In this document: positions 49,216-54,959 of the stretch, piece by piece
Layout of the letters: each line of letters opens with the position of its first letter
Position numbering within the stretch: the stretch's first letter is position 1
NCBI GenBank assembly: GCA_017694785.1
Contig: JADIMK010000040.1
Span: 8,689 to 72,688, forward strand
DNA length: 64,000 nucleotides
Source of the DNA: Candidatus Cryptobacteroides intestinigallinarum
GTDB lineage: Bacteria > Bacteroidota > Bacteroidia > Bacteroidales > UBA932
Direction: 5' to 3'
The notes under the pieces: model-generated
Database searches by the model: none
What the model was told of the DNA's origin: nothing
The model's input: the letters and a program-made list of their open reading frames with translations, nothing else
Program-made: the position numbers and the translations under genes

Positions 49216-51351
49216 TTAAAGTGCATCAGGATCATATATTAATGAAAACTCATCCAGATACAGGGTACTCCCCACACCTCCTGTAAAGTAATCTCCATAC
49301 TTGCTTGCAGCTGCAACAATGACTATGTACTTCGGTTTCCTTGTCAGATCCCTGTAGTCGATCTTGATGGTAAACGGCTGGTAAGAGTCAGTCGCATTGA
49401 GATCTATCGTACCGTAGGCTATGATACCTGGATCGGTCTGAGGCTTGACGAACTGTCCGGAAGCTGTACTTACACGGAACGGAGCATCCCAGTCGGTCAG
49501 CATTATCTGTATCTGCCCGATGTCCTGCTGGCCCTTCATGGATGCATACGCACCTTTTGCCTGGTCGATAGTCTTCGGCAGATAATAGTAGAATCCTGTC
49601 AGAGCCAGAGGCCGAGACGTAAACGGCACGCCCCAGTCAAGCTCTGCTCCCGGATTCGAGAGAGAGATGACAGCCTTGATGAAACGTCCTGTATATATGT
49701 TCCCGGCGGCAAGTCCAACCAGTGTAGCGCTCTTGCTCTCCAGGCGGGCTGCATTCTTGCCCTCTCCTTTGACATATATGTACTCCTCTTCAGCCGGAGT
49801 TGTAGGATATATTGAAAGCGTCTTTGTTCCGCCGTTTGCACTGTCCCACCAGAAATTGTCCGCACTCTCGTCAGGATACCACACATTCCCGTCCTGATAC
49901 CACGCATCAAACGACAGGTTTGGAACAGTTCCGGCTGACTCTGTCGTGAATTCAAGTTCAGTTGTCTCCTTGTCTTCAGCTGAAACAGCCCTGAATACAT
50001 ATACGGTCTCGGGATCTAGGTTCTTAAGCCTTGCCGTGAATGTCCTTGTGGATGGACCAGGGACAATTTCCCCCGAAAAGTCAGTCCACTGCGACTCTGA
50101 TGCCTTCCTGTACTGGAATGAAAGCCCGGCCGGCTGCTGTGGAGCAAACCAACGGCCAGTGACATCTGCAAACACCGCCCATGGGGAAGCAGACACAGCC
50201 TCTGCATCCAGGTTTGATATGATCTGGAAGACAAAATCCTGCTCTGCAAGACTGTGTCCACGGTCAATAGCCTGGACTGATACAGTATAATTCCCTATAG
50301 GTAATGACTTTATATAGTCTGTGAGATCTACAGTTGCAGATGTGGATGATTCTGTGACTGACGAAACCCTTATGCCGGCTGCTGCCAGAGCAGAAACTGT
50401 CTCCGATGAAGCGCCGACCAGATCAAAGGATTCTGCAGAAAGCTCCACAGGATCAGAATACTTAAGGAAGAGAGTGGAAAAACCGTCTTCCGAAGATATG
50501 CTAATGATTCTGGATGCAGCATCTCCTACTTCAACCGAGATAACATCCGAGTAATCAAAGTCAGCTGAAATTACAGGAACAGTGGAATCCTCAGGATCTA
50601 TGACAAGGGTATATTCCTTTTCATTCATGCTGTCATCAAGAATGATGGATACCGCGCCTGCACCTATATCTTCCGTATCAGAAGCCAGACTCCAGCTGAA
50701 CTTGTAATGTTCATTTCCCTTGACATCTTCTACAGTTCCTGTTATATCTTGATACTTTACACCATCTGTATTTACCAGGGAAAGTGTCCATTGAAGAGTT
50801 CCTGTGACGCTGAAATATCCCTTTTCATCTGATGTGCCGTCTGATGTGCTGAACACCAGCTCTCCACGGCCGTTGGAAACAGTGAAATCCATGGAAGAGA
50901 AAGCCTGTTTTACAGCATCATCATATTCAACAGTCACACACGTATTTTCTATCGTCGCAACGACATCAATATTCGACACCTCACCAGCCTTTATATCAAA
51001 GGCCGTACTGCCGCTATAGAAAGGTTGCCCGAAAACTGCGTCAGGAGATGTGGCCGACGACACTACAGCCGTATAGTGCCCTGCCATAAGCTTGAGGGGC
51101 TCGTCCGGAAGCACAGAGCAATCCGGAACAAAGGCAGTCCTCACATCAAGAGCATCATATACAGTAAGGCTGAAAGCCTGGGCTTCCTCTGAACTGCTTC
51201 TGAGCTCCGGTATGACAACCTGCATAGACTGGTCCTCATGCACCCTCGCGCTCAGAAAGCCATACCCTTCTTCAGACAGGGAGTCTTTCCGGCATGAAAG
51301 AAGCATGCAGATCGTCAGGACGGACAAAATATATCTGAATATACTATTCAT
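49216..51351 (-). CDS. DUF4493-like lipoprotein with FN3-like and PCMD domains
   Basis: Lipobox LLSC; LMAGHY...PFYSGSTAF..V.AT..N..VTV DUF4493 pattern; PNLSFDAW, WDSANGG, WGVPFTSRP, GSTLYLDEFSLIY. Confidence 0.8.
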   Translation of the reverse strand: MNSIFRYILSVLTICMLLSCRKDSLSEEGYGFLSARVHEDQSMQVVIPELRSSSEEAQAFSLTVYDALDVRTAFVPDCSVLPDEPLKLMAGHYTAVVSSATSPDAVFGQPFYSGSTAFDIKAGEVSNIDVVATIENTCVTVEYDDAVKQAFSSMDFTVSNGRGELVFSTSDGTSDEKGYFSVTGTLQWTLSLVNTDGVKYQDITGTVEDVKGNEHYKFSWSLASDTEDIGAGAVSIILDDSMNEKEYTLVIDPEDSTVPVISADFDYSDVISVEVGDAASRIISISSEDGFSTLFLKYSDPVELSAESFDLVGASSETVSALAAAGIRVSSVTESSTSATVDLTDYIKSLPIGNYTVSVQAIDRGHSLAEQDFVFQIISNLDAEAVSASPWAVFADVTGRWFAPQQPAGLSFQYRKASESQWTDFSGEIVPGPSTRTFTARLKNLDPETVYVFRAVSAEDKETTELEFTTESAGTVPNLSFDAWYQDGNVWYPDESADNFWWDSANGGTKTLSIYPTTPAEEEYIYVKGEGKNAARLESKSATLVGLAAGNIYTGRFIKAVISLSNPGAELDWGVPFTSRPLALTGFYYYLPKTIDQAKGAYASMKGQQDIGQIQIMLTDWDAPFRVSTASGQFVKPQTDPGIIAYGTIDLNATDSYQPFTIKIDYRDLTRKPKYIVIVAAASKYGDYFTGGVGSTLYLDEFSLIYDPDAL

Positions 51352-51375
51352 GTTTTTCTCAGATTAGAGACCTGA

Positions 51376-52659: not shown

Positions 52660-52733
52660 ATCTTGTTTTTTTCTGGATTGGACTATCTTGTCATTATTCA
52701 TTTGATATCGTTGGATCTTACGGCTGTCCGACT

Positions 52734-54959
52734 CTATTCATATACGAGAGAAATATCGTCCAGATAGAGTATACTTCCTATGTTACAGCCCGAAGAATAT
52801 AGGTTTTCTCCACCGGAATCATTGGCACCCAATGTAATGGACTGCTCCGAATATGAAGGCGCCGATGAAGATGAAGACTTGAAGATCACATAGACTGACG
52901 CAGCCTTCTTCGTATTGTCCGAATAGGAAAGAGGTACAGTCATCCTCTGCCATGTCGAGGCGGCAGGACCGTCGGTAATCTCAGTTGACGAAAATACATT
53001 ATTGGAGGCATCGCGCAGCTGCACAAGCATATAAAACTTCTCGTCACCTGCCGGGGTATACTTATATGCAAACTCTATTGAAGATGGTCTGCTCCCGAAA
53101 GACCGGCCCTCAGAAGCATGCGTTCCGTCATCATTTGCTGTTCCTGCAAAGAGTTCTCCTCTGGAAAGACGATTGACTTTATCAACACTGTAGCCGACCC
53201 ATACGGTAAACAGCTTCGCAGACTTTGTCCCTGCATAGACATCCGAAACAGTATATCCGACGCTCGGGAAATTTGCCGTATTCTGGTTTAGATCTATCCA
53301 TGAATAATTGCCAGGCATGGTGTACTTGCTGTTGACATCCCACCATCTTTCCTCTCCGCCGCTGAGCCATGGCCTGTACCATTCTATGGATTTGTCCCTT
53401 GAGAATATTGACCACCCGAGCTCAAAATTGAACATCTCATCTGTCCATTCCTCAAATCCTGAATTAGGGAACTGGGTTGCGGCCTCTGTCTGGAGAGTCA
53501 CAGGAGAAGTTGCCACATTCTCATTATGGTTGTATATGGCTCTGAGTTCGTATGAAGTAGACGGAGCGAGTCCCGCTATATCAGAATAAGAAGCAGCCGT
53601 ACCCGAAACAGAAGCCGGGACGACATCTGTCCAGACATCACCTGAGCCGCTGCGCCTGTACTGTAATGCGACTGCGGAAGGGTTGCCGACCTGGATGGAT
53701 GAAGAAAGATACCTTATGCTCCTTGCATAGGCATTCCAGTCCTCTACGGTAAACGACAGTCCGGATGGAGCAACTTCATTGACAGAAAATGCCTCAGAAG
53801 TACTCCTGTCAAGCTCATCTTTTACTGTCAATGTGAATTCTGCAGAAAATCCGTTGGCCGGGTCATATCTGAGAGAATTAGGGACATCGGAAAAATCAAG
53901 ATTTGCAAAACGTTCTCCAGCCAATGAGCGTGGCCATCTTATCCCCACTGACCTGAGGGCTTCCCTGACGGCCGGATCAAGATCTGCAGAAGAGAGGTCT
54001 ATGTCCGTATCCTGAGGAACCCCGAGTGAGGCGAGATAATCGGATTTAACCCTCAGAGTGAAGCTTTTCACACCAGCTCTGGCTTCGATGTCTGCCTGCA
54101 GCCAGTCTTTGTCCACTGCTTCAGTGACCTCACAGGAATTGTTGTCATCAAATCCATATAAAGTAATTACAGGAGGATCCTTGGGAGCAGCATCTGCCGG
54201 TATGGATTCATGCTTTTCAATTACATTCATGGAATCATCCGTACGCACTGTCACAAGATCGAGATTTCCGGTTCCTGTATTCAGTTCAGCATAGAATGTC
54301 ACAAAATCATTAGGATTGCATTCGACGGGCTCAGCTGGATAATATTTCCACTCACCGTCAACAATAGCGTAGAATTCATACCCGATGCTTCCGGCAGGCA
54401 TGTATCCTGCCCTGGTCTCGTCTTTCTCAAACTTGAGGTAACGCGTGGCGGAACCGTCCAGCCGCACTCTTGAATGATACTGGCTGTACTCGAGCTTAAG
54501 ATTCGTACCGTACTTTACGGCCACCTTTACCTTCGACATCTTTGCGACAGCACTAAGCTCCTCTACTGTCTGTTCATGCACCGTGAACGTCTTGTCTGCA
54601 GCATACCATATGGAATTGAAACCTATTCCAGTGGAATCTCCCCACTGGGCGAGCAATCTGTACTCTCCGGCATTCAATGGTATTTTCCGGCCTTCTGTTG
54701 CTTCATAGGTATCCCGGTAAAGGCGGATTCCGGAAGAATTGTAGATTTCCACCTCGAAATCTGCAATGTCAGGTAACAACGGATCAGAAGAAGACCGGGT
54801 ATCGTCTGCTCTGACCCCAGGAACCGTGTTTGTCCCCTCAGAAGAAGTAAGTGAGATGACCACTTCTCCTCCGCCATTGAGTGATGGCGAGGTAAACTCC
54901 TCTGTACAAGATGAGAACAAGAATGCGATTCCCGTTAAGATTAATCCTGTTCGTCTCAT
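52734..54959 (-). CDS. DUF4493-like lipoprotein with FN3-like and divergent PCMD-like domain
   Basis: Lipobox FSSC; LNAGEY...WYAADKTF pattern; FPNSGFEEW, GSRPSS, GSILYLDDISLVY. Confidence 0.78.
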   Translation of the reverse strand: MRRTGLILTGIAFLFSSCTEEFTSPSLNGGGEVVISLTSSEGTNTVPGVRADDTRSSSDPLLPDIADFEVEIYNSSGIRLYRDTYEATEGRKIPLNAGEYRLLAQWGDSTGIGFNSIWYAADKTFTVHEQTVEELSAVAKMSKVKVAVKYGTNLKLEYSQYHSRVRLDGSATRYLKFEKDETRAGYMPAGSIGYEFYAIVDGEWKYYPAEPVECNPNDFVTFYAELNTGTGNLDLVTVRTDDSMNVIEKHESIPADAAPKDPPVITLYGFDDNNSCEVTEAVDKDWLQADIEARAGVKSFTLRVKSDYLASLGVPQDTDIDLSSADLDPAVREALRSVGIRWPRSLAGERFANLDFSDVPNSLRYDPANGFSAEFTLTVKDELDRSTSEAFSVNEVAPSGLSFTVEDWNAYARSIRYLSSSIQVGNPSAVALQYRRSGSGDVWTDVVPASVSGTAASYSDIAGLAPSTSYELRAIYNHNENVATSPVTLQTEAATQFPNSGFEEWTDEMFNFELGWSIFSRDKSIEWYRPWLSGGEERWWDVNSKYTMPGNYSWIDLNQNTANFPSVGYTVSDVYAGTKSAKLFTVWVGYSVDKVNRLSRGELFAGTANDDGTHASEGRSFGSRPSSIEFAYKYTPAGDEKFYMLVQLRDASNNVFSSTEITDGPAASTWQRMTVPLSYSDNTKKAASVYVIFKSSSSSAPSYSEQSITLGANDSGGENLYSSGCNIGSILYLDDISLVYE

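Follow-up and report, generated by a model that had tools for sequence, protein, structure and literature searches.

The window analysed here, a stretch of 64,000 nucleotides from Candidatus Cryptobacteroides intestinigallinarum (assembly GCA_017694785.1, contig JADIMK010000040.1, positions 8,689 to 72,688), contains a tight five-gene operon on the minus strand, A-B-C-D-E, with intergenic gaps of 17-56 nt. The products of A, B and C are lipoproteins with an N-terminal DUF4493 domain (PF14900), and each of them carries a lysine or arginine followed by a small residue after the first strand of this domain. This site is real and conserved, within a family that is unrecognised as pilins. By analogy with known systems, the DUF4493 lipoproteins are probably matured like type V pilins, so that what is new here would probably be a type V-style maturation site in an unrecognised family whose cassette has its own barrel, encoded by gene D. 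That the site serves proteolytic maturation seems to us rather likely, and the further step, that it triggers a type V-like strand exchange, is proposed tentatively. In the literature searched, no paper mentioned DUF4493 or PF14900.

An earlier note on this DNA, made from the sequence alone, had recognised three neighbouring DUF4493 lipoproteins. This was borne out by Pfam, where all three exceeded the PF14900 gathering cut-off of 27 bits (91.3 bits for A, 143.9 for B and 124.9 for C), with E-values from 1e-25 to 9e-42 and 1.1e-25 for gene A. In each protein, a lipobox cysteine follows a hydrophobic signal peptide (Cys18 in A, Cys32 in B, Cys20 in C), and the Cys column of the DUF4493 alignment described below was invariant in 149 representatives. 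The longest open reading frame of B opens 14 codons upstream of the Met-Lys-Lys start of its orthologues (window 52659-52701); the true start of B is probably Met15, as the orthologues suggest, and the lipobox Cys would then have number 18 in the precursor.

The conservation of the site was followed with the first 254 residues of C as query against 1.84 billion cluster representatives, which yielded 1,082 matches at E <=1e-3. The N-terminal 300 residues of the best 150 of these 1,082 representatives, sharing at most 50% mutual identity, were aligned with A, B and C using MAFFT. The site column held Lys in 90 and Arg in 55 of the 153 sequences, and other residues in 8. When these eight exceptions were inspected, four turned out to be local misalignments with Lys/Arg-Ala beside the column and one was an N-terminal fragment, while three truly lacked a basic residue; on this count, about 149 of the 152 full-length representatives have Lys/Arg, and the conservation of the column is ~97%. 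With Lys and Arg counted as one class, the column matches the best core positions in conservation. The earlier note had named a lack of conservation among homologues as one finding that would speak against its proposal; with a basic residue that is almost invariant, this objection falls away.

Of the 135 representatives with a recognisable lipobox, 65% have Thr/Ser at P2 and 82% have Ala/Ser at P1', and at P1 Lys (61%) is more frequent than Arg (39%). Their sites lie at a median distance of 28 residues from the Cys, and between 25 and 34 residues from it in 91%. The Gly that opens strand 1 was found in 148 of 151 representatives. Across 43 B-type homologues, the conservation of K73 is at least 90%, and B-type homologues with as little as 26% identity still have the site. 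A tree of the 153 sequences requires at least 33 changes of state at this position; nearly all of them are Lys/Arg swaps (at least ~30), and the basic residue is seldom lost. The repeated swaps indicate selection on a basic residue at this place and not on one particular side chain.

The three tripeptides reported in the earlier note (Table 1) agree with the translation of their codons. Its claim that they occupy the same position in all three proteins stands for K73 of B and R51 of C, which share one alignment column, but the site named for A lies five residues off. In an ungapped comparison with seven A-orthologues, Lys/Arg was found opposite R50 in 7/7, in the context Pro-Gly-x-[Lys/Arg]-[Ser/Ala], and R55 was matched by Gln or other residues. 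Since the basic residue of the orthologues aligns with R50 and not with R55, V49-R50-A51 is the conserved site of A, and Thr-Arg-Ser, which is not conserved, was rejected in its favour; the MAFFT family alignment had slipped onto R55 in A.

Next to this conservation, the tripeptide itself is of little weight. A loose form of the motif, with the basic residue 25-41 residues past the Cys, was present in 13 of the 229 lipoproteins predicted in the source genome by a regular expression. These 13 comprised four DUF4493 proteins (all those of the genome), two Mfa_like_1 pilins and seven others, namely a transglutaminase-like protein, a DUF5723 protein, two GH18 enzymes, a BamD-like protein, ApbE and a protein without Pfam match. 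With such a background of ~3% of lipoproteins, the tripeptide alone is a weak signal, and it is the family-wide column that makes the site real. DUF4493 comprises more than 1,000 clusters at 50% identity, and it was detected in 26 of 251 sampled Bacteroidales genomes and in 4 of 300 other genomes of a phylum-wide sample. A fourth DUF4493 lipoprotein of the source genome is encoded beyond the operon (G000:C34:46356-47459; L047:7354-8457, minus strand); it is a fusion to DUF6359 and carries a Leu-Thr-Arg-Ala site, and the next gene encodes a 916-aa Big_2 protein.

The site was then compared with those of type V pilins. Mfa1, which is lipidated at Cys20, is cleaved at Arg49|Ala50 and FimA at Arg46 (PMC13655056), and Mfa4 is cleaved at Arg53 (PMC4789730). 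The solved Bacteroides and Parabacteroides pilins have a Lys or Arg 24-35 residues past the Cys, in the loop between strands 1 and 2 (PMC4789730 Table 2; PMC5789003). The median spacing of 28 residues in DUF4493 thus compares with 27 in FimA and 29 in Mfa1. The source genome encodes canonical pilins of its own, in a four-gene Mfa_like_1 operon on contig C98 and as FimA-like genes on C41 and C83, which share this layout, including Thr-Lys-Ala; in Mfa_like_1 proteins from four Bacteroidales genomes, the matching column was basic in 13/13 (Lys in 9, Arg in 4) and mostly followed by Ala. The four genes of the C98 operon (G000:C98:4702-12566; L048) all have Lys at the maturation site, and a DUF3575 barrel gene lies on each side of it. 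From these sequence comparisons, the DUF4493 site cannot be told apart from the pilin site in either position or composition.

Further features are held in common with type V pilins (FimA, Mfa1, Mfa3 and Mfa4; PDB entries 4gpv, 3up6, 3pay and 4qdg). Like them, A, B and C are made as lipoprotein precursors whose first strand forms part of the fold and leads into a flexible loop between strands 1 and 2 with an exposed Lys/Arg and then a small residue. They are also encoded in a multi-subunit operon, and, like tip pilins of type V pili, they possess an extra C-terminal binding domain. In the models of B and C, the body looks all-beta and two-sandwich-like, with these pilins as its most compact structural matches. 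The C-terminal domain is PCMD in A and C, and in B it is a small beta domain whose last strand is conserved; such an arrangement would be compatible with tip or adaptor subunits.

AlphaFold2 models were built for B and C, and the pairing of strand 1 was judged from DSSP strings and from covariation, which has modest power. The mean predicted local distance difference test score (pLDDT) was 71 for B, with 80-89 in the core, and 79 for C. In both models, the first strand is assigned as strand (Table 1), an assignment that DSSP makes only if there are hydrogen bonds to an adjacent strand. It is followed by a segment of low confidence (pLDDT <50) that holds K73 in B (residues 54-73) or R51 in C (residues 41-57), and then by strand 2. 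In a mean-field covariation analysis of 206 sequences (effective number 193; 43,660 pairs), strand 1 covaried, in the numbering of C, with the modelled strands 61-66 and 112-120, the pairs L33-I120 and A35-L62 occupying ranks 10 and 14. No strong covariation partner was found in this analysis for the conserved basic residue, the best rank of which was 63 of 43,660 pairs.

When model B was compared with the PDB by Foldseek, chains of seven Bacteroides adhesin entries (5cag, 4qdg, 4dgu, 3up6, 4gpv, 3pay and 3t2l) made up 12 of the 50 top matches. Among the 50 matches listed, these entries had the highest template modelling (TM) scores and the lowest root-mean-square deviations (rmsd), with a Foldseek probability of 1.0. 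Three of them, 5cag, 4dgu and 3t2l, are reported to be pilins. 4gpv is a shaft pilin, 3pay and 4qdg are putative anchors and 3up6 is a tip pilin (PMC5789003, PMC4789730). With model C, 3pay was the best compact match once PCMD structures were set aside. The likeness of the modelled DUF4493 fold to type V pilins is real but moderate, and DUF4493 may have the pilin fold.

Several results weigh against regarding DUF4493 proteins as type V-like subunits. The matches to the adhesin entries were modest (TM-scores of 0.29-0.41, rmsd of 8-13 A), and generic tandem immunoglobulin (Ig)/FN3 proteins reached similar Foldseek E-values, with an rmsd mostly above 20 A. In Pfam, A, B and C had no match to P_gingi_FimA, Mfa_like_1, Mfa2 or related families, their N-terminal module being recognised as DUF4493 only, and scans at E-values up to 10 gave a weak Mfa2 match in 2 of 43 B-type and in 0 of 65 C-type proteins. 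An hhalign alignment of DUF4493 with Mfa_like_1 had an apparent P of 1e-8 and was rejected, since the initial match was due to the shared lipoprotein signal peptides and fell to a probability of 2.7% once these were trimmed. Sequence and profile searches of the PDB with B, C and the family alignment returned PCMD structures and noise, with no significant pilin. When a hidden Markov model built from the representatives was run against all open reading frames of the source genome, a pilin appeared as the second sub-threshold match, at a non-significant E of 0.66. The Pfam DUF4493 model gave a weak match (E 8e-4) on the last Mfa_like_1 pilin of the C98 operon, on which we do not rely. Altogether, these searches found no sequence homology between DUF4493 and the FimA/Mfa families. 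In addition, no free C-terminal donor strand was evident in the sequences of A, B and C or in the models of B and C, the last strand of PCMD belonging to the PCMD fold itself in solved PCMD structures, and none of the subunits A to E resembles a stalk or anchor pilin; E, by its family matches, is not pilin-like either. As to release from the lipid anchor, cleavage alone would probably not free the protein, as strand 1 is paired in the models and covaries, and would need to be displaced.

In the mechanism that we propose, A, B and C would be lipoproteins exported to the surface, in which the DUF4493 module acts like the body of a type V pilin. After lipidation at the lipobox Cys, the first, 'anchor' strand would be built into the beta-sandwich fold, and the flexible loop behind it would present the conserved [Thr/Ser/Val]-[Lys/Arg]-[Ala/Ser] site. 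A Lys/Arg-specific surface protease, for which a clostripain-like C11 lipoprotein is the single candidate found in the genome, would cut there and separate the lipidated strand from the remaining chain. Because the site follows a structural strand and does not lie in the lipid-side linker, the cut would leave the lipidated strand non-covalently bound until it is displaced, and such retention of the cut strand is the logic of type V pili. The lipidated strand could then be displaced, so that the protein would come off the lipid anchor and assemble with a partner by strand exchange. Lectin-like PCMD heads would be displayed by A and C, while D and E would form a constant, slowly evolving base of the cassette. 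Cleavage, the identity of the protease, the opening of a groove, strand displacement and assembly are steps that we infer.

No match to a C25 gingipain was found in the source genome, a 2.24-Mb draft in 102 contigs that is 91% complete. There was a single match to a C11 clostripain-like protease (G000:C66:47674-48987; L049:1675-2988, minus strand), a protein with a lipoprotein signal whose relatives of solved structure include the C11 enzymes 6mzo (E of 1e-36), PmC11 3uws and fragipain 5dyn. This protein is a candidate maturase, proposed from its family relationship, for the Mfa_like_1 pilins and the DUF4493 proteins alike. Since Lys and Arg sites both occur in the pilins and DUF4493 proteins of the source genome, the maturation enzyme would have to accept both, which, to judge by PmC11, is plausible for C11 enzymes. 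The features of a substrate of a surface C11 protease are present, i.e. a basic P1, a small P1', a loop predicted to be disordered and the protease gene in the genome. According to a 2025 review, a large number of surface lipoproteins are released by the surface clostripain of Bacteroides, which also cuts pilins as they assemble (PMC12632263); where fragipain cleavage has been mapped, it occurs at Arg|Ala (PMC8406203). In DUF4493, acidic residues are found at positions +3 to +5 past the Cys, with at least two of them in 59% of the proteins, which would fit the lipoprotein export signal of Bacteroidota (PMC12632263). Processing of BFT, Fab1 and secreted toxins by the C11 enzymes fragipain and doripain is similar in that the same kind of surface lipoprotein substrate has a basic P1 and Ala at P1', and in that a C11 lipoprotein is encoded in the genome. 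However, the known C11 sites lie deep in the chain (R211 in BFT, R200 in Fab1) and their cleavage removes prodomains, whereas the DUF4493 site, like that of pilins, comes after one structural strand and keeps a constant spacing from the lipid anchor.

The likeness of the site to those of fragipain raises the possibility that the protease merely sheds A, B and C, freeing soluble glycan-binding proteins to the medium or to vesicles, and that neither strand exchange nor a fibre is involved. The release of many surface lipoproteins by fragipain and its cleavage at Arg|Ala, the C11 lipoprotein encoded in the genome, the lectin-like PCMD heads of A and C and the fact that neither a donor strand nor a stalk-like subunit was recognised would all agree with this. 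Nevertheless, we consider shedding alone unlikely: if the site served release only, one would look for it in the linker directly past the Cys, but it comes after a conserved strand that is paired in the models and shows covariation with core strands, so that a cut would not by itself detach the protein, and the strictly kept multi-subunit operon with its dedicated barrel suggests assembly.

Somewhat less probable still is that the basic residue is never cut and has a structural or electrostatic role, such as binding to lipopolysaccharide phosphates, contact with barrel D or a salt bridge that closes the loop. Cleavage is something that so far we infer, anchor pilins of type V pili keep their strand 1 (PMC5789003), and the interchange of Lys and Arg is equally compatible with a purely electrostatic role. 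On the other hand, a preference for Thr/Ser at P2 and for a small residue at P1', in a loop of variable length that is modelled as disordered, typically marks a protease site, pilins with proven cleavage share this signature and its spacing (PMC13655056, PMC4789730), and a strong covariation partner of the basic residue is missing in the analysis above. As to a chance recurrence of a loose three-residue pattern in three paralogues, it could appeal to the ~3% background among unrelated lipoproteins and to the site first proposed for A, which is indeed a non-conserved look-alike. But for K73, R51 and R50 it is refuted by the family alignment, with its conservation over 150 representatives and in every orthologue inspected, and its remaining probability is negligible.

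If the vacated position of strand 1 is to be filled in maturation of the type V kind, a donor strand is needed in place of the C-terminal one, and there is one speculative candidate. An Asp-Asp-Ser strand closes the DUF4493 domain (residues ~230-248 of C, window 50590-50660, with equivalents in A and B); its Asp is conserved in 85%, and in the models of B and C it has a pLDDT below 50 and is flanked by flexible linkers. Being conserved, of low confidence and placed between linkers, this strand would suit binding in trans and might, speculatively, act as an intermolecular donor-like strand. The position left by strand 1 would then be filled by this internal strand and not by a C-terminal one, which would permit the chaining of subunits with large lectin-like heads. 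That the DUF4493 cassettes form in this way a separate, barrel-associated branch of type V-like fibres or adhesin complexes, with D as the membrane platform, is a conjecture to which we assign a low probability.

Set against type V pilins, the DUF4493 cassette differs in several respects. It belongs to a different Pfam family without detectable sequence or profile homology, the similarity of the modelled folds is moderate (TM 0.3-0.4), and a C-terminal donor strand, a stalk pilin or an anchor pilin was not recognised in it. Large PCMD heads are carried by two of its subunits, and it is always accompanied by the conserved dedicated barrel D and the PCMD lipoprotein E. Should the site truly serve maturation, a second protein family, which cannot be linked to pilins by sequence, would follow the assembly logic of type V pili with a protease as the trigger, and the known repertoire of surface adhesins of gut Bacteroidales would be widened. 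It would also provide a simple search rule (a lipobox, one strand and then [TS][KR][AS] at about +28) and a testable set of substrates for the surface clostripains of gut Bacteroidales, and the invariant partnership with a small barrel would bear on the question of what holds or handles these lipoprotein subunits at the outer membrane.

Table 1. Genes, first strands and basic sites of the operon, in window coordinates.
Feature	Position	Strand	Description
Gene A	52734-54959	minus	741-aa lipoprotein; N-terminal DUF4493 domain and weak C-terminal PCMD match
First strand of A	54849-54869	minus	Residues 31-37, Gly-Glu-Val-Val-Ile-Ser-Leu; aligns with strand 1 of B and C
V49-R50-A51 of A	54807-54815	minus	Family-conserved basic site, 32 residues past Cys18; codons read directly
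T54-R55-S56 of A	54792-54800	minus	Site of the earlier note; present, not conserved
Gene B	51376-52701	minus	441-aa lipoprotein; DUF4493, flexible linker, small C-terminal beta domain
Strand 1 of B	52549-52578	minus	Residues 42-51; DSSP strand; block 41-50 with mean pLDDT of 79
T72-K73-A74 of B	52480-52488	minus	Conserved site; end of low-confidence loop 54-73 (pLDDT <50)
Gene C	49216-51351	minus	711-aa lipoprotein; DUF4493, FN3-like domain, PCMD
Strand 1 of C	51235-51264	minus	Residues 30-39; DSSP strand; block pLDDT of 73
L50-R51-S52 of C	51196-51204	minus	Conserved site; within low-confidence loop 41-57
Gene D	48341-49159	minus	272 aa counted from the likely ATG; signal peptide; small outer-membrane beta-barrel
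Gene E	46650-48323	minus	557-aa lipoprotein; C-terminal PCMD; without DUF4493 and without [KR][AS] site

The order A-B-C-D-E was identical in four Cryptobacteroides-like genomes, and the nearest public loci are from metagenome-assembled genomes labelled Candidatus Cryptobacteroides or uncultured Bacteroidales. In the four genomes, identities amounted to 89% for ParE, 79-85% for D, 69-74% for E, 62-76% for B, 53-69% for C and 52-69% for A; D is thus the slowest-evolving gene of the operon (79-85% versus 52-76% for A-C). The five-gene operon is also kept in distant Bacteroidales in which B has 35-40% identity and the flanks are different, and minimal cassettes consist of one DUF4493 gene with D and E. 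At one distant locus (L045:14031-17196), four additional short DUF4493 genes (226-290 aa as called in the source) come after the cassette. All four have a [Val/Thr]-[Lys/Arg]-[Ser/Thr] site, and their products could be stalk-like subunits without heads.

None of the genes A to E had a significant NCBIfam match, and gene D matched no Pfam family. For the barrel D, with ~11 amphipathic segments, 868 homologues were found, some of which are named OMP beta-barrel domain proteins in the source. D was present in 20 and DUF4493 in 26 of the 251 Bacteroidales genomes, and both in 16, versus ~2 expected by chance, a comparison that is descriptive as related genomes are not independent. In these 16 genomes, the two are adjacent on the contig. 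In other genomes, D is often tandem-duplicated and co-occurs with multi-copy DUF4493. The small DUF3575 barrels that flank the canonical Mfa_like_1 operon are analogous to D in their placement, and BLASTP detected no similarity between them and D.

Concerning E, the earlier note had described a fourth lipoprotein that lacks the motif and could stay anchored. It is correct that E has neither a DUF4493 domain nor a [KR][AS] site, but a conserved basic residue is present all the same: the Arg of T50-R51-K52, 33 residues past Cys18, was found in 9/9 orthologues. The role of an anchored subunit received no positive support. As E has no DUF4493 domain, no pilin family match and a different N-terminal module, which is Ig-like and unrelated to DUF4493, it is not a pilin-type anchor.

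The PCMD domain is carried by C and E according to Pfam, and the match of A (E 2e-5) is under the PCMD cut-off. PCMD lipoproteins with solved structures (PDB 3hbz, 4jrl, 4het and 3s30) were deposited as 'putative glycoside hydrolase'. They belong to the same family as the C-terminal domains of C, E and, weakly, A, but differ in being proteins of ~350 aa that combine an Ig-like domain with PCMD, without a DUF4493 module and without a pilin-type site. Another comparable system is Ffp1 (filament-forming protein 1) of Porphyromonas, a third lipoprotein fimbrillin encoded outside the fim and mfa operons, which is type V-like when modelled and is said to be matured by Arg-gingipain (PMC11316588). 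Unlike the DUF4493 proteins, it is a single gene without accessory genes, is reported to be unique to Porphyromonas and is not a DUF4493 protein.

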